46,465 nucleotides of DNA from an uncultured virus (IMG/VR IMGVR_UViG_2061766007_001087) (IMGVR_UViG_2061766007_001087), one strand, 5' to 3'. Shown: positions 6,978-28,262, counted from the stretch's first letter. The notes: generated by a model from the sequence alone, not told the origin. Translations and numbers: made by a program.

Positions 6978-7071
6978 CGGGGTTTTCAAAATTCTTAGGG
7001 AATATTTTTAATTTTTGTGTGAAGGTAATGTAACTGATTACTGAACAAGATAGGGGGATACCCCCCCCCCT

Positions 7072-7089
7072 ATTAAAATTTCTCGGTAG
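7072..7089 (+). promoter_or_regulatory. Phage promoter-like motif copy 1
   Basis: ATTAAAATTTCTCGGTAG, overlapped by the hairpin CTCGGTAGT-ATTC-ACTACCGAG (7082-7103). Confidence 0.7.
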
Positions 7090-7116: not shown

Positions 7117-7203
7117 ATGATGTGGGCTTTCTTAATAATCATCGTTCTGAAGTTCGGCAAGCGTCTAGTAGACATACTAGACAAACTTGTCAGCGAGAAG
7201 TAA
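7117..7203 (+). CDS. 28-aa hydrophobic peptide, first early ORF
   Basis: MMWAFLIIIVLKFGKRLVDILDKLVSEK*, with SD GAGGAGG, lying between a promoter motif and a terminator. Confidence 0.65.
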   Translation: MMWAFLIIIVLKFGKRLVDILDKLVSEK

Positions 7204-7210
7204 GAACTTT

Positions 7211-7235
7211 AGGGAGCAAATGCTCCCTTTTTTTT
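7211..7235 (+). terminator. Rho-independent terminator
   Basis: AGGGAGC-AAAT-GCTCCCT followed by a T-run. Confidence 0.85.
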
Positions 7236-7971: not shown

Positions 7972-8215
7972 ATGCGTGACTTCATATTTGATAATTTTGA
8001 GGAGGAAGAAAAAGATGCTCTCCTCAATAATGTTTCAGTTGTTAAACCAACTGANNNNNNNNNNNNNNNNNNNTGAAGAAAAATATGTTGAATCAGTCAG
8101 TTTGGATAAACTAACTGACGAACAGCAAGACAAACTTTTCACCGTGTTAGGTGAGGGTTTGAATAAGATTCTCAAGGGTCTCGCCAGTTTTGACGATGAC
8201 GATATTCCATTCTAA
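7972..8215 (+). CDS. Small acidic early protein with SSB-Ct-like tail (FDDDDIPF)
   Basis: AGGAG SD then ATG at 7972 (MRDFIFDNFEEEEKDALLNN...). Joins across an N-run to ...KGLASFDDDDIPF*. Confidence 0.75.
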
Positions 8216-8263
8216 ATGTAGCAGGCATCGGTATATCCGTGTAAGTCCTGCTACATTTTTTTT
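8214..8263 (+). repeat. UAAGY-bulged hairpin copy 1 (terminator-like)
   Basis: AAATGTAGCAGG-CA-t-CGG-tatat-CCG-TG-TAAGT-CCTGCTACATTT followed by a T-run. Confidence 0.8.
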
Positions 8264-8329
8264 AATCTTTTGGTAAGTAAATAGTAGTAAGGCTAACATC
8301 ATGCTTGATACATTCTACTTACCATCAGC

Positions 8330-8347
8330 AATAAAATTTCTCGGTAG
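8330..8347 (+). promoter_or_regulatory. Phage promoter-like motif copy 2
   Basis: AATAAAATTTCTCGGTAG. Confidence 0.75.
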
Positions 8348-8672
8348 AAACAGGTCCTCGTTTAGCGACGCGAGAATAAATAATGTTGCCATCGTAGACA
8401 GTTTGAGTTGGCATTCTGATACAAAAATGCTAACACCGATTCCGCTACGGGATATTAGCGGACGTCGTTCGGTAACATTGCGACGTTATAGACAAAAGTT
8501 ACCTACCCTAGACAACGCTGAGGGCGAACTGCAACGTCTAGGTTAGTGAAAACCGGTTTTCCTGATGTTTCCGGATACAAAAAACGACGTCCCGCTCAGT
8601 TTAATGGCATTGCTGAGTGATTGAGCAAAAACCATTCGTCTTTGGCACCTAGACGTAAAAATAAGGTGTACC
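8348..8672 (+). ncRNA. Candidate large structured non-coding RNA (3' end probably in the N-run 8673-8739)
   Basis: No SD-led ORF. At least seven helices, a 10-bp long-range closing helix (8460-8469/8583-8592) and two tandem H-type pseudoknots. Flanked by promoter motifs at 8330 and 8757. Confidence 0.7.
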
Positions 8673-8756
8673 NNNNNNNNNNNNNNNNNNNNNNNNNNNN
8701 NNNNNNNNNNNNNNNNNNNNNNNNNNNNNNNNNNNNNNNTTCATTACTTGAGAGAA

Positions 8757-8774
8757 AATAAACTTTCTTCATAG
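8757..8774 (+). promoter_or_regulatory. Phage promoter-like motif copy 3
   Basis: AATAAACTTTCTTCATAG followed by the hairpin GAGGTTGCTA-GAGA-TAGCAACTTC. Confidence 0.65.
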
Positions 8775-8830
8775 GCGAGGTTGCTAGAGATAGCAACTTC
8801 ATATGTTAATTTATTTTTATGGAGGTCGCT

Positions 8831-9200
8831 ATGACTACAATTTATACATCTTATTACACAAATATACGTAATTTAAATGCTGACTACTATAGAGTCAGCA
8901 TCTCNNNNNNNNNNNNNNNNTGTAGTAGATGAAAGGGTGCAATTACTTGCACCACCTGCTCATACATTATGGGCACATAAGAATGGGCAGATAAATAATG
9001 CTCAATATACAGAACAGTACATTGAGCATTTAAATGCTCACCATGAACAAGTCATTGAAGTCATGAGACAAATATGGCGAAATGCACATGGTCGGAACAT
9101 TGTGCTCTTATGCTGGGAGAGCAAATCGAAATTCTGCCACCGTCACCTGTTTGCTGATTGGTTCTATCGGCAAACAGGATACCGAATTGAGGAACTGTAA
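8831..9200 (+). CDS. DUF488-family protein
   Basis: GGAGG SD and ATG at 8831 (MTTIYTSYYTNIRNLNADYYRVSIS). Joins across the N-run to LLAPP...IVLLCWESKSKFCHRHLFADW, carrying the LLCxE...CHR signature of DUF488. Confidence 0.8.
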
Positions 9201-9203
9201 GGT

Positions 9204-9236
9204 GGGTGCTAGTAGTGAAACATTCTACTAGCACTC
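9204..9236 (+). terminator. Strong 3' stem-loop after the DUF488 gene
   Basis: GGGTGCTAGTAG-tgaaacatt-CTACTAGCACTC. No U-tract. Confidence 0.5.
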
Positions 9237-9239
9237 AAC

Positions 9240-9257
9240 AATAAAATTTCTCAGTAG
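9240..9257 (+). promoter_or_regulatory. Phage promoter-like motif copy 4
   Basis: AATAAAATTTCTCAGTAG. Confidence 0.75.
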
Positions 9258-9314
9258 TGCAAGATAGTTCTCGCACTTCAACATTTATTCACTAACAGCC
9301 ATAGGGAGGCTATC

Positions 9315-9530: not shown

Positions 9531-9563
9531 TGCAGGCATTGTTCCATACATGTAAGTCCTGCA
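9531..9563 (+). repeat. UAAGY-bulged hairpin copy 2
   Basis: TGCAGG-CA-t-TGT-tccat-ACA-TG-TAAGT-CCTGCA. Confidence 0.8.
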
Positions 9564-9972: not shown

Positions 9973-10307
9973 ATGTTAAACTCTATCCACGTTTTCGATA
10001 TTTTCTTCATCAACGCAGTTTCTGAGCAGGCTGAGGCTTGCGAACTTGAAACNNNNNNNNNNNNNNNNNNNNNNNNNNNNNNNNNNNAGACCTCTCTGAT
10101 GAAATTATTCGTGCTGAAACGGCTCGCATTGTTCGTCATGCAGTTTCTAGACTGCGTTCGACTGAGCAGAAAGTCATTATTGGCACACTCGCTGGTCTCC
10201 CACCAGAAGAGATTGCCCGTAGATGTGACATATCTACTGAGCGGGCAAAAATCGTCTGGCGGGAGGCCACGCTCAAGTTGAGGAGAGAACTTGAGCCGTT
10301 GCTCTAA
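9973..10307 (+). CDS. Small protein with a sigma70 region-4-like HTH domain
   Basis: ATG at 9973 with AGGAGG SD. After the N-run a different frame reads DLSDEIIRAETARIVRHAVSRLRSTEQKVIIGTLAGLPPEEIARRCDISTERAKIVWREATLKLRRELEPLL*, which fits the Sigma70_r4 pattern. Confidence 0.75.
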
Positions 10308-10313
10308 ATCTCC

Positions 10314-10345
10314 AGCAGGCATTGTGCAAACATGTAAGTCCTGCT
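10314..10345 (+). repeat. UAAGY-bulged hairpin copy 4
   Basis: AGCAGG-CA-t-TGT-gcaa-ACA-TG-TAAGT-CCTGCT. Confidence 0.8.
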
Positions 10346-11063: not shown

Positions 11064-11098
11064 ACCAACATTTATCAACTAACCAAAGGAGTTCTATT

Positions 11099-11539: not shown

Positions 11540-11597
11540 AGTGATAGATTCACTCAAGTATTCAACATTCATCAACCAACCAAAAGGAGAAAAAAAA

Positions 11598-13100: not shown

Positions 13101-13149
13101 ATAGTAAATCTATCTACGTTTAACTTTTCACAATATGAGGATAAATTCT

Positions 13150-14233: not shown

Positions 14234-15115
14234 ATGAAACAGCAAGAAATGGAAATGCTCTATGCAGAAAATAACATGACTCATCTTCTGGATACTTATA
14301 TTTCAGATGAGTACATGGATTATTTAATACAGCGATTAAAGATAGTAATGGTTGCTGATTCTGAGAAACCTTTTAAGAGAGAGTGCATAGATTTAATTAT
14401 CAAAAACTGCAATCCAAGAAAGGTATTTAAGAAAATGATTACTCCATTTATCTTAAAAGATAAAGTAATCCTCCAAGAGATAGTAAGTAAAGTATTTCCA
14501 ATCTTTGGTAATGCTACTACCAAGCATAGACAAGGTATATGTGTAGACTGTTTTCTTACTGCTCTATTAGATGGTAATTACTTTAGCATTACTCAGACTT
14601 CAGAAGAGTACTTTGTTACTACTATTATTGATTTTACAAGTCTCAGAACTGCTGCACAGAATATGGGATTTGTACTCCCTTCTATTGAACCACTGGAACC
14701 AGTAGATAACAGACACATTGGATATAAAACATTCAGTGAATCTATTATTTGTGGTTCCAAGAATAATCCATTGGATTATGAAAAATGCTTTTCTCATATC
14801 AATAGAGAGAATAGAACAAAACTATGCTGGGATGATAGAGTACTGAAACTTTCTCCTCTTACATTTGNNNNNNNNNNNNNNNNNNNNNNNNNNNNNNNNN
14901 NNNNNNNNNNNNNNNNNNNNNNATTAATAATAGATTTAAACAGTTTGAATTACTAAAACAGAGTATTCCAGATAAGGTAAGTAAACTGGACGGAAATGAA
15001 TTTTACATTGCACACAAATATGATAAACGAGGCAGGTGCTACTGCAAAGCACATGAGTTTNNNNNNNNNNNNNNNNNNNNNNNNNNNNNNNNNNNNNNNN
15101 NNNNNNNNNNNNNNN
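14234..15115 (+). CDS. RNA polymerase II subunit 1 (N4 gp15-like)
   Basis: MKQQEMEMLY start and LPSIEPLEPV. After an N-run a different frame gives HKYDKRGRCYC (DxRGR motif). End lies in an N-run. Confidence 0.85.
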
Positions 15116-15119
15116 GAAA

Positions 15120-16380
15120 ATGATTAATTTTGAACCAATCGAATGGGCATTTATTGAGACTGCTAATCAGTTAGGTTTTGATAAGAAACCTTTTCAGGAG
15201 AGAATAAAGATAGGTTCAGATATATTTGAGGAAATTAAGAAATACGGAGTAGAGAAAACTTATTTCAAGTATAACCCAGATGAACCTCAGTTATTTGCAA
15301 GAGCATTAATCGGATTGGGAGATATTGCAAATGGTAAGCCTACCAATATGCTTGTAGGACTAGATGTTACTTCATCCGGACCACAAAATGGTGAAGTAGG
15401 TTCAAGAGATTCTACAGGTCTTGCAATTACTGGTGCAATAGATTTAATAGTAAATGGAGTTACTATAGTACCAGATGTATATACTGAAATAGAGAATAAA
15501 CTCAGACCAGTAGGTGTACCAAAACTAAGTAGAAAAATGGTAAAAGAAGCAGTTATTCCATATGTATATGGCTCTACTGATGCACCGAAATCTTTGTTTG
15601 GTAAGTTCTATAAACACTTTAAGGAGGCATTCTTCCAGACAATTCCTGGTTCAGATTCGTTTAAAAACTTATTAATAGATGCATGGCAGGACGACTGTAT
15701 GCTCTATAAATGGGAATTACCAGACGGATTTGTTGCTACTACTGTACCAGAAAAGAATATAGAATTCCGGTTACAGTTATTAGGAAATCACTCATATACA
15801 TATGTATCCAAGGAACCATCTCCATTGGAGAAAGGAGACCTGCATACAAAGGCATTATCAGCAAATGTATTTCACGCATTTGACGGATTTATGCTTAGAG
15901 AGGTACATCGTATANNNNNNNNNNNNNNNNNNNNNNNNNNNNNNNNNNNNNNNNNNNNNNNNNNNNNNNNNNNNNNNNNNNNNNNNNNNNNNNNNNNNNN
16001 NNAGGTTCCAATGGAAGAGCAGAACATCTGGAACAGTTGTACTGGAAATTCAAATTCTTTAGTTTTGAAATTCTGGAAGTTATCCAGTTAAATATAGGAA
16101 ATATCTCAGAAGAGTATATCAATGTATGCTTACAGCAAATTGAATATCTGTTATCTAAGNNNNNNNNNNNNNNNNATTCATGATGAGTTTATGTGTTCTC
16201 CACTTAACTGTAATGTTATGAAGCAGGTATACAATAATCTTCTGGGTGCTTTGTATTGTTCTGACTGGTTCCGTATAGTAATTAACGAATTGAGAAATGA
16301 CAATTTAGCAGATAAGTATGTAGAACCAATAAACTGGGATATTTATAACAAAATCATAANNNNNNNNNNNNNNNNNNNNN
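15120..16380 (+). CDS. RNA polymerase II subunit 2 (N4 gp16-like)
   Basis: ANQLGFDK..F.ERI, motif A GLDVTSSGPQ, motif B RKMVKEAVIPYVYGS, ANVFHAFDG and motif C IHDEF (about 16176). End lies in an N-run. Confidence 0.92.
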
Positions 16381-21650: not shown

Positions 21651-21725
21651 AGGGGTGTGGTGTAATGGAAGTCACTACAGGTTTTGATCCTGTCAGATAA
21701 GGTTCGAGTCCTTACACCCCTGCCA
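21651..21725 (+). tRNA. tRNA-Gln(UUG)
   Basis: Acceptor AGGGGTG/CACCCCT + GCCA; anticodon arm ACAGG-TTTTGAT-CCTGT; T arm TAAGG-TTCGAGT-CCTTA. Confidence 0.95.
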
Positions 21726-26425: not shown

Positions 26426-28262
26426 GTATTTACTGATTAAAGAGTCATTAATTATTACAGAGAACATTAGATACTATTATTTTGATAATGGTGTTAGTCC
26501 AGATGTACCAGTAGTACCATTAAAATATGTACAAGATAAATTTAAAGCAAATGAAGCAAAGATGTATTTGCAGGATTTATTAAAAGACCTGCATAGATTA
26601 GGTGCTACTAAGTTACTGGTATGTGATGCAAACTATTTTAAATTAATGACTGGTCAGAAAACTATAGAATTTTCCTATGGGCAGGAGTTCTCCTGTAAAA
26701 TAGGTAACTATAGTTTTAAAATAATACCTGGTATAAACTATAAAGCAATTTCATATAATCCAGAATTACTTAACAAGTTACAGTTATCTATTGATAAATT
26801 TAATGATGTTAATCAATCATTTGCTAATATAACCAGAATAGGAGTTACTGATGTTAGAAAATCTCTGTTATCTCTGCATAATTATAGTATGCTTACCGTT
26901 GATATTGAAACTACTGGGTTATGTTTTTATCTTCATTCTCTCTATAGTATTAGTTTCTCGTGGAGTAACAGANNNNNNNNNNNNNNNNNNNNNNAAGGAC
27001 AAGAAGAAGTTTTAAAAAATTTCTTTGATACTTATCAAGGTAAACTGGTATTCCATAATTCCTCTTTTGATATAAAGTTTCTTATTTATAAGTTGTACAT
27101 GAAAGACATTAATGACCAGGAAGGATTACTTACTGGTCTACATACTCTCTGTAGGAATTTTGGAGATACTAAGATTATTGCATATTTAGCATTAAATTCT
27201 ACTGGTAAACCAGATTATGGATTAAAGCATCTGGCATTACCTTATGTAGGTAAATATGCATTAGAAGATATAAATGATGTTACTAAGGTGCCTGTAGATG
27301 ATTTACTAAATTATAATGTTACAGATACTTGTGCTACCTATTGGGTATATGAGAAATATTATCCAAAGATGGTAGCAGACAATCAGGAGAATATATACAA
27401 TACTTTATTTTTACCTAGTCAGAAAGTACTAATTCAGACTGAATTAACTGGAGTAAGACTAAATCCAACAAAAGTAAAAGATTTTAAACAGAGTGTACAA
27501 GATGCAATTACTGAAGCGGAGAACTATTTAAATAGTNNNNNNNNNNNNNNNNNNNNNNNNNNNNNNNNAGAACTAGATAAAATTAACAGTAAATTAAAGA
27601 CTAAAGTAAAGACACTGGAAGATATTAATTTTAAGATTAATTTGAACTCACACTCTCAGATTGCTCATTTGCTTTATGAAGTAATGCTTCTACCAGTAAT
27701 TGACTATACAGATTCAGGTAAGCCTTCCAGTAGTAAAGATACTATAGAGAAGTTATTAGAAAAGAATACTAATCCAGAATATACAGATATATTAAAGAAC
27801 TTGGTAGAACTGCAAAAGGCTTCTAAAATCTTTTCGGATTTCATCCCTACTATGGAGAATGCTTTCAATGAAAGAATTTTCGGTAGTTTTGTTCTAGGTG
27901 GCACTATATCTGGTAGGTTATCCAGTAAGGAACCAAATCTACAGAATATGCCTTCTACTGGTACTAGTTATGCTAAAGCATTTAAAGCCTGTTTTGATTA
28001 TAGAGATGGGTGGATTATGGTAGGCAGTGATTTTAATGCACTGGAAGACCATATTAATGCATTATTAACTAAAGACCCTAATAAACTGGCTGTATATACA
28101 GACGGGTACGATTCCCATTGTATTAGAGCATTCAATTATTACGGTGACCAGATGCCAGATATAAGACTAGCAGTAGAAGGAGATGAGTGCTGGGTAGAAG
28201 AAGATAAAAATGGACACAAAGAGTATTTTTGTAAACACGGAGACGAGGTATTTAAAGTATGA
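26415..28262 (+). CDS. DNA polymerase family A, N-terminal piece (3'-5' exonuclease, thumb, motif A)
   Basis: VDIETTGL, FHNSSFD, YNVTD, GTISGRLSSKEPNLQN, motif A GSDFNALED, YDSHCIRA. True TGA stop, not next to Ns. Confidence 0.92.
   Translation: METRYLLIKESLIITENIRYYYFDNGVSPDVPVVPLKYVQDKFKANEAKMYLQDLLKDLHRLGATKLLVCDANYFKLMTGQKTIEFSYGQEFSCKIGNYSFKIIPGINYKAISYNPELLNKLQLSIDKFNDVNQSFANITRIGVTDVRKSLLSLHNYSMLTVDIETTGLCFYLHSLYSISFSWSNRXXXXXXXXGQEEVLKNFFDTYQGKLVFHNSSFDIKFLIYKLYMKDINDQEGLLTGLHTLCRNFGDTKIIAYLALNSTGKPDYGLKHLALPYVGKYALEDINDVTKVPVDDLLNYNVTDTCATYWVYEKYYPKMVADNQENIYNTLFLPSQKVLIQTELTGVRLNPTKVKDFKQSVQDAITEAENYLNSXXXXXXXXXXXELDKINSKLKTKVKTLEDINFKINLNSHSQIAHLLYEVMLLPVIDYTDSGKPSSSKDTIEKLLEKNTNPEYTDILKNLVELQKASKIFSDFIPTMENAFNERIFGSFVLGGTISGRLSSKEPNLQNMPSTGTSYAKAFKACFDYRDGWIMVGSDFNALEDHINALLTKDPNKLAVYTDGYDSHCIRAFNYYGDQMPDIRLAVEGDECWVEEDKNGHKEYFCKHGDEVFKV

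Follow-up and report, generated by a model that had tools for sequence, protein, structure and literature searches.

What does a phage make from an early promoter that is followed by no recognizable gene? The question is raised by a stretch of roughly 400 nucleotides (nt) in the DNA of an uncultured virus, IMGVR_UViG_2061766007_001087, the whole analysed sequence of which (46,465 nt) is called the window here. The window is an uncultured N4-like phage, Schitoviridae-type, from bovine gut metagenomes. The stretch in question, termed the unit, begins at a promoter-like motif ending at 8348 and is visible as far as 8672, where a masked run of letters begins. A first-pass annotation had proposed that it encodes a large and ornate RNA. 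We read the unit as a putative non-coding early transcript of ~400 nt with a conserved core, its promoter being assigned from position; we hold this reading tentatively, and place it a little short of probable. The signal of the unit lies in the missing gene and in the conservation of the sequence, and not in the fold.

The early genes of N4-like phages form a host-takeover toolkit in which nearly all the products are small orphan proteins. If the reading is true, an RNA product would give the N4-like family a takeover or anti-defence agent of a new kind. The unit belongs to an uncultured rumen lineage, of which public protein collections contain hardly any relatives.

The promoter-like motif and the missing gene

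The motif AATAAAATTTCTCnnTAGA is present in 11 copies on the plus strand between 7072 and 13101. Allowing up to three mismatches there are 12 matches in the window where 0.68 would be expected, and none of 100 shuffled sequences reached 12; the twelfth match (three mismatches) is on the minus strand at 26787. Ten of the 11 plus-strand copies are followed within ~27-63 nt by a Shine-Dalgarno (SD)-like sequence and the start codon of a small open reading frame (ORF), and there is usually a terminator-like hairpin 5′ of the next copy. For 10 of the 12 cassette starts that were scored, the SD duplex lies between -6.1 and -12.3 kcal/mol; of the other two, that at 13135 gives +1.2 kcal/mol and that at 9974 was set one base off. 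At several copies a hairpin begins within the motif or directly after it. From its position we read AATAAAATTTCTCnnTAGA as a phage-specific early promoter.

The remaining plus-strand copy, at 8330-8348, heads 324 visible bases without an SD-led start. The unit is bounded by this copy and the next at 8757-8775, and the earlier claim that it occupies an early cassette of its own is borne out. Its features are as follows, where X3, X4, X5 and X20 are variant contigs assembled from four sequencing runs of four studies.

8215..8262, plus strand: hairpin terminator of the acidic early gene upstream; perfect stem of 11 bp (8215-8225/8247-8257) with a T run behind it
8271..8324, plus strand: imperfect inverted repeat 5′ of the motif; arms 8271-8291/8304-8324, with ATG 8301 in the loop
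8301..8546, plus strand: 81-codon ORF, judged spurious as a whole; begins 5′ of the motif, without SD, and with indels in the variants
8330..8348, plus strand: copy of the early promoter-like motif AATAAAATTTCTCnnTAGA with 0 mismatches, taken as the start of the unit; function assigned from position
8357..8374, plus strand: promoter-proximal hairpin H1, CTCG/CGAG; stem untouched, loop changes at 8362, 8364 and 8367 in X3 and at 8364 and 8367 in X4
8394..8593, plus strand: conserved core; no X3 difference listed, X5 identical
8407..8434, plus strand: hairpin H2; 9 bp with one G-T pair, the loop carrying GATACAAAAA
8418..8427, plus strand: GATACAAAAA copy 1, exact 10-mer repeat
8460..8592, no strand assigned: multibranch domain; perfect 10-bp helix 8460-8469/8583-8592 around hairpins 8471-8503, 8507-8542 and 8553-8574
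8534..8656, no strand assigned: alternative perfect 10-bp pairing 8534-8543/8647-8656; rivals hairpin 8507-8542 and the second proposed pseudoknot stem
8574..8583, plus strand: GATACAAAAA copy 2, exact 10-mer repeat
8593..8619, plus strand: hairpin CGCTCAG/CTGAGTG; arms 8593-8599/8613-8619, pair probability ≤0.16
8673..8739, no strand assigned: masked stretch of 67 N; 88-89 letters in the variant contigs
8757..8775, plus strand: following copy of the motif, with 3 mismatches, in front of the DUF488-N3a gene (ATG 8831, SD -10.0 kcal/mol)

The best SD duplex of any start codon in 8349-8672 is -3.6 kcal/mol, in agreement with the first-pass annotation, which had seen no SD-led ORF; the value for the ATG at 8301 is -3.7 kcal/mol. 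The ORF that begins there, 8301-8546, starts 5′ of the promoter motif. The right arm of the 8271-8324 repeat together with the motif makes up a 42-nt element that occurs again at 9216-9257 with 83% identity. This promoter element forms the first 16 codons of the ORF, and the motif copy at 9220 translates to a peptide similar to the start of the ORF. The ORF matches no Pfam or PHROG family. Among 5.8 billion proteins its only match is P0002, with 26 of residues 1-29 identical, and beyond residue 29 P0002 gives nothing significant in any frame of the window. Because the match is confined to these residues, the apparent homology is that of the promoter plus ~40 nt of leader; behind the same promoter the P0002 lineage has unrelated sequence. 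A phmmer search with the frame-0 core (8394-8543) against 1.84 billion representatives returned only the core itself and four tandem-repeat proteins, and we rejected the four as spurious matches that score by accumulation.

The frame of ORF 8301-8546 is broken in both of the contigs that cover it by a 1-base indel in each, an insertion behind 8391 in X3 and a deletion at 8364 in X4 (depth 2). The 10 substitutions listed for X3 fall 4/3/3 on the three codon positions, compared with 6/3/19 in the DUF488 gene; these counts say nothing on 8394-8546, where no differences are listed. The codon-usage score of the ORF is -0.06, where windows of true genes have a mean of 0.29 and spurious ORFs a mean of -0.27, and it falls within the range of real small early genes. 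Given the upstream ATG, the indels in two contigs of two, the lack of third-position bias and the lack of a true homolog, we reject ORF 8301-8546 as a gene, and its conservation at the protein level, which the first-pass annotation had asked about, was not found. On the minus strand there are four short ORFs of 25-30 codons each within 8315-8635; two of them span 8560, and would be broken by a base that X20 has inserted behind this position.

A coding sequence may still be sought at the 3′ end, and the terminator of the unit, or a micro-ORF, may lie inside the masked 8673-8739. The visible sequence would then be the long structured leader of a micro-ORF of up to ~35 codons, or some other cis-regulatory leader, with its coding part and/or terminator under the mask. 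The sequence AAGGTG at 8664-8669 lies directly 5′ of the mask, no terminator is visible before it, and the first cassette of the array encodes merely a 28-residue peptide. Moreover the segment 8534-8543 can form a perfect 10-bp pairing with 8647-8656 or a perfect 7-bp pairing with 8507-8513; these are mutually exclusive, and resemble a switch. Yet the AAGGTG duplex is only -4.4 kcal/mol, compared with -6.1 to -12.3 kcal/mol at 10 of the 12 cassette starts scored, the leaders of the other ten cassettes are ~27-63 nt in length, and there is space for ~30-39 codons at most. We consider a leader of this kind quite unlikely.

Conservation of the unit

Parts of 8078-8672 are shared by 20 of 21 listed sequencing runs, which taken alone is no evidence; the comparison is that of the assembled contigs of four runs. 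X3 (depth 12.8) and X4 (depth 2) share the gene order of the window. Over 8215-8672 they are 97-98% identical to it, X3 having 13 differences and two indels and X4 eight differences and two indels. In the DUF488 gene the identity is ~90%, with 34 (X3) and 32 (X4) differences in ~330 nt; among the differences listed there, 19 of 28 (X3) and 12 of 18 (X4) are third-position changes. The middle of the gene upstream of the unit is replaced by 209 letters in X3 and 148 in X4 that are unalignable at ≥80%. The sequence of the unit is better conserved than the neighbouring protein genes.

The differences listed for X3 comprise 10 substitutions and the inserted base clustered at 8328-8393, and none is listed in 8394-8593. 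X5, a DNA contig of 227 nt, is 100% identical over 8368-8593. X20, a contig of 218 nt from an RNA library covering 8378-8593, has nine differences and the one base inserted behind 8560. The changes 8594 G>A and 8608 C>T are common to X3 and X4, the latter lying in the loop of the 8593-8619 hairpin, and in both contigs the T run behind the 8215-8257 stem is one base longer. Within the divergent patch 8328-8393 the changes fall on the nn positions, the loop of H1 and the spacer, and spare both the promoter core and the stem of H1; this pattern looks like constraint. Hairpin H1 is also conserved in the P0002 relative, the downstream sequence of which is unrelated. The helix at 8357-8374 that was proposed as the first of the RNA is thus present, but as one of a class of promoter-proximal hairpins found behind other motif copies.

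The proposed helices take up 134 of the 325 nt, and nine of the ten variant events in 8348-8672 fall elsewhere. The tenth converts the G8594-T8618 pair to A-T, and is the only change relevant to pairing. The placement of the variants fits the helices, but the events are few and clustered.

On the reading that we prefer, the phage-specific promoter (deduced from a 19-nt motif common to ten gene-bearing cassettes) would fire rightwards and give a transcript from ~8347 to ~8750, roughly 400 nt in length, with non-coding cargo, as one of eleven early units. The transcript would open with the small hairpin 8357-8374, followed by the core 8394-8593 and a looser continuation to 8672, almost unchanged among related phages.

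Points against the RNA, and the rival explanations

A number of observations weigh against this reading, and they concern the extent of the conservation, an open reading frame, the searches for relatives and the folding. To begin with the conservation, near-identity also spans the flanks 8215-8327 and 8741-8802, which contain the terminator, the upstream hairpin and the next promoter, and the differences are gathered in 8328-8393. Either observation is explained equally well by selection and by mosaic recombination of a block that was shared recently. A further 33 differences, all of those of X20 among them, lie outside those listed, and the X4 deletion at 8364 is known at depth 2 only. The X20 contig from the RNA library shares its ends with the X5 DNA contig; the shared end at 8593, beside the polymorphic 8594, is an assembly effect and not an RNA end. 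The core is a lineage-specific cargo, since the P0002 lineage has unrelated sequence behind the same promoter. In X3 the conserved block has its left edge precisely at the upstream gene's stop codon. With the flanks identical, the left edge at a stop codon and the cargo different in a related lineage, recombination of cassettes at shared regulatory sequences may lie behind part of the conservation pattern.

These observations raise the possibility that the cassette is empty or decayed, the promoter surviving with a functionless remnant as cargo, and that the near-identity results from recent recombination of a block and not from selection. There are no X3 substitutions at all in 8215-8327 and 8741-8802, and the mosaic clustering, the position of the left edge, the swapped cargo and folding at background level (below) are all in its favour. 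However, a single recent copy would not account for the core, which (alone or within larger pieces of the unit) comes from four runs of four studies, with flanks that differ, and which is 4% diverged in X20. The retention of the promoter core and H1 stem while spacers change is like divergence in place under constraint, the enrichment of CAAAA and GATACAAAAA described below is unexpected for junk, and no remnant of any known protein was found with Pfam, PHROGs or phmmer. We think an empty cassette rather unlikely.

The second point is that frame 0 of the core is open in all the variants seen, and has a codon score of -0.01 to -0.07, inside the range of -0.27 to +0.34 for real small early genes. 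The unit might encode a small basic protein, 39-55 residues long, if an internal start (TTG 8403, ATG 8427 or, in X3, ATG 8383) were used to read the frame of ORF 8301-8546. The frame is open over 8394-8546 in the window with no X3 difference listed there, it is the only stop-free frame of the six across the core, its score of -0.01 is within the range of real small early genes, and in our reading of X3 the insertion and two neighbouring substitutions put ATG 8383 in frame. Set against this, there is no SD at the candidate starts (-3.0 to +0.3 kcal/mol at best), where the early genes of the phage mostly have strong ones, ATG 8427 is part of the 3′ arm of H2, the hairpin of greatest stability (pair probability 0.98), and the start would differ between variants. 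No homolog was found in 1.84 billion representatives, Pfam or PHROGs, and 17-24% of spurious ORFs of at least 40 codons have a codon-usage score as high. A small protein from this frame appears very unlikely to us.

Third, no DNA homologous to the unit was found in the phage, IMG/VR, JGI or GTDB collections. Searching 50,697 phage records by blastn with 8200-8672 gave no match, pattern scans of IMG/VR with two 22-mers of the region gave 0 matches each, and locus searches of IMG/VR anchored on proteins (ORF 8301-8546, the phrog_2109 protein and the RNAPII subunit) gave none that was confirmed. A JGI metagenome scan with one 22-mer gave 0 matches, as did the contigs of GTDB genomes searched for the unit. 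Within the window itself the longest match of an antisense or paralogous copy is 12 nt (E 0.71). Two scans gave candidates that were rejected. That of IMG/VR with the promoter motif found 16 loci with one match apiece, which we judged to be chance, and that of JGI metagenomes with both arms of the long-range helix found 40 loci, none homologous by blastn. We note that the latter scan met 16 copies of a long palindromic repeat in contigs of three related metagenome data sets (L020, L022-L024, L028-L031, L035, L037, L042, L048-L050, L052 and L054). The repeat is unrelated to the unit, and may be an interspersed repeat of one organism.

Lastly there is the folding. All the helices drawn in the first-pass annotation are present at their coordinates and pair fully, with two G-T pairs (one in H2 and one in the stem 8593-8599/8613-8619), and 8460-8461 are claimed by both helix H3 and the long-range helix. 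The minimum free energy of 8348-8672 on the plus strand is -87.1 kcal/mol, compared with -79.9 ± 5.8 kcal/mol for shuffled sequences (z = -1.24), 13 of 100 shuffles being as good; on the minus strand it is -87.1 kcal/mol (z = -1.51). In sub-windows (200 shuffles) z ranges from -1.17 to -1.98 on the plus strand and from -1.11 to -3.16 on the minus strand, and the multibranch 8458-8594 folds better on the minus strand (z = -3.16) than on the plus (z = -1.80). For comparison, 32 other N-free 200-nt windows of the phage have a mean z of -1.5 (standard deviation 1.5), 47% of them at ≤ -1.61, and the neighbouring protein cassettes fold at z = -2.7 to -5.8. The folding energy is no better than that of shuffles or of the background of the phage itself.

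Stem counts are likewise at chance. There are 11 perfect stems of at least six pairs, where 1000 shuffles give 9.6 ± 3.1 (P = 0.37), and four of at least seven pairs, where they give 2.4 ± 1.6 (P = 0.23). A 10-bp stem arises in 3.6% of the 1000 shuffles (P = 0.036), and the long-range helix of this length is the only mildly unusual stem. In a sequence of 325 nt with 45% GC, chance alone will supply helices that can be drawn by hand, and the dense pairing on which the earlier proposal was built does not exceed chance (plus-strand z = -1.2 to -2.0, with stem counts at shuffle level).

The ensemble is diffuse. H2 is the sole stable helix on the plus strand, and the only one with a high pair probability there (0.98). 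For the long-range closing helix the probability is 0.31-0.84 on the plus strand, depending on context, and 0.86-0.88 on the minus strand. Two tandem H-type pseudoknots had been proposed at the 3′ end; with folding tools that cannot score pseudoknot loops, their stems have a mean pair probability of ≤0.17 on either strand, so that the pseudoknots are unsupported. G-U pairs had been taken to indicate an RNA of the plus strand, an argument that is not supported: there are only two such pairs, G8594 is A in both X3 and X4, and the multibranch folds better on the minus strand.

No match to Rfam 15 was found in 8340-8672 even at E ≤10 when this 333-nt stretch was searched alone. The families covered include tmRNA, ROOL, GOLLD, HEARO, raiA, group I intron and RNase P, and none of these, which the first-pass annotation had named for checking, was found. 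The only matches in the window above the gathering score are two tRNAs, at 21651 and 21817; ARAGORN found no tRNA or tmRNA in the unit, and tRNA-Gln and tRNA-Leu elsewhere in the window. With a folding energy essentially no better than that of shuffled controls, the large ornate RNA is unsupported.

A promoter that fires into gene-free DNA is found at the primary origin of T7, at oriF and oriG of T4 and in RNA II of ColE1. The unit is like the T7 primary origin and ColE1 RNA II in this arrangement, where the RNA or its synthesis itself would be the product, and is unlike them in having no visible AT-rich unwinding element. The unit might thus act as DNA, either as a transcription-activated replication origin or as an array of protein-binding sites. 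Nearly all the pairs in the helices are Watson-Crick, the minus strand folds no less well than the plus, the two copies of an exact 10-mer lie 156 nt from each other, and no gene is present in the promoter unit; N4-like polymerases act on single-stranded or extruded DNA, according to the available parts of two reports (PMC4496689, PMC9163698). By contrast, there is no iteron array or tandem repeat, the GC content of 45-46% is not AT-rich, and the literature searched had nothing on replication origins in N4-like phages, no paper with bacteriophage N4 in its title or abstract containing 'origin of replication'. We give little credence to a DNA-level element.

The proposed role, related systems and the early region

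Returning to the non-coding transcript, what might such an RNA do? The exact 10-mer GATACAAAAA occurs twice in the unit, at 8418 and 8574, and akin to it are ACAAAA/CAAAAA sites at 8492 and 8626. The sequence CAAAA is present four times, compared with 0.37 per 325 nt in the window, and the unit is the sole one of 881 N-free sliding windows to reach four. Each of the CAAAA-type sites lies in a predicted single-stranded segment directly 5′ of the 3′ arm of a helix. On the basis of these sites, which are a hint, we propose a decoy or sponge. We suggest, with low confidence, that the RNA would bind protein in trans during the first minutes of infection, and would display repeated single-stranded (G)AUACAAAA(A) beside short helices (H2, and the junction domain closed by the 10-bp helix). 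In its boldest form the proposal is that cattle-gut N4-like phages possess an early non-coding RNA of a kind not described before, transcribed by a phage RNA polymerase within minutes of infection, the near-invariant 200-nt core of which would offer (G)AUACAAAA(A) beside short helices as a decoy or sponge that titrates a host RNA-binding protein or defence sensor; this we think unlikely.

ROOL and GOLLD are large ornate RNAs associated with the rumen or with phages. The RNA proposed in the first-pass annotation would be like them as a large, structured, phage-associated RNA from the cattle gut habitat. The unit differs from both in giving no covariance-model match at E ≤10, in being much shorter at ~400 nt, and in having an unsupported fold.

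An antitoxin mimic had been suggested too, the likeness to a type III antitoxin (ToxI-like) being a small structured RNA in the context of phage and abortive infection. Tandem-repeat searches of the unit found 0 arrays at a minimum score of 30, and two 10-nt two-copy repeats only, which speaks against such a mimic. The gene that follows, 8831-9200, has a promoter copy to itself and encodes a DUF488-N3a protein (Pfam E 2e-11; phrog_2450), and there is no toxin-like gene adjacent. With no repeats and no adjacent endoribonuclease toxin gene we rejected a type III antitoxin-like repeat RNA.

The nearest published analogue that we have seen is the set of late intergenic small RNA candidates of the N4-like Pseudomonas phage LUZ7. 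In the available part of that report, putative intergenic small RNAs without coding potential were detected by ONT-cappable-seq (PMC9163698). Like the unit, these are promoter-headed intergenic stretches without coding potential in an N4-like phage; unlike it, they are <250 nt, late, and located between orf69 and orf70, whereas the unit lies in the early array (PMC9163698). The unit resembles no record of the phage collection by blastn, though whether LUZ7 is among those records was not checked. In the literature on N4-like phages and rumen Schitoviridae, judged mostly from titles, we found no early-region non-coding RNA.

The assignment of the window to the N4-like phages draws on several of its genes. 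At 60-80% identity, a 4.9-kb stretch matches 70 records, in the DNA polymerase genes of N4-like coliphages and of phages of Salmonella and Klebsiella. ORFs 14234-14956 and 15120-16091 match the PHROG families N4-like RNA polymerase and RNA polymerase, and ORF 38105-39571 matches the C-terminal part of a profile of the virion RNA polymerase. DNA of the window is contained in bovine gut metagenome runs. The lineage is rare, since the RNAPII-like subunit has three relatives (94%, 65% and 29% identity) among 5.8 billion clustered proteins. The window contains many masked runs of N that need not keep their true length. A run of 19 N at 8055-8073 breaks the frame of the gene upstream of the unit, and the 67 N that follow the unit correspond to 88-89 letters in the variant contigs. 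Frames read across masks are therefore unreliable.

The promoter of the N4 virion RNA polymerase is a hairpin with a stem of at least 4 bp (5-7 in N4), a 3-nt loop and its centre near -11, in the available parts of the two accounts (PMC4496689, PMC9163698). The motif AATAAAATTTCTCnnTAGA permits only a stem of 3-5 bp (TTTCT/AGAAA at best) with a 4-nt loop, and larger hairpins are found 3′ of some copies; it looks linear, unlike the 3-nt-loop promoter hairpins described there for N4 and LUZ7 (PMC4496689, PMC9163698). The early-promoter grammar of this lineage may be different from that of N4 and LUZ7.

Some further observations were made in the early array. Three cassettes (9277-9296, 11064-11083 and 11561-11580) have a common 20-nt CA-rich leader module of 80% identity between motif and SD sequence, which may be a translational enhancer or processing site. 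A family of terminator-like hairpins (8221-8251, 9532-9562 and ~10307-10345), conserved in both stem and loop sequence, recurs between early cassettes; the first two are 81% identical, and some members have no T run. The C-terminal part of an early ORF (10089-10304) scores 19.3/19.0 bits against sigma-70 region 4, under the Pfam cut-offs of 24.1/25.7, and the ORF may encode a small phage sigma or anti-sigma-like helix-turn-helix protein. The first cassette, 7117-7203, contains only its 28-residue hydrophobic peptide, with the strongest SD of the array (-12.3 kcal/mol) and a terminator at 7211-7228. Just 5′ of the first promoter copy, where the genes switch from leftward to rightward, there is a G-run/C-run palindrome at 7040-7075; a genome end, or a site connected with packaging, may be close by.

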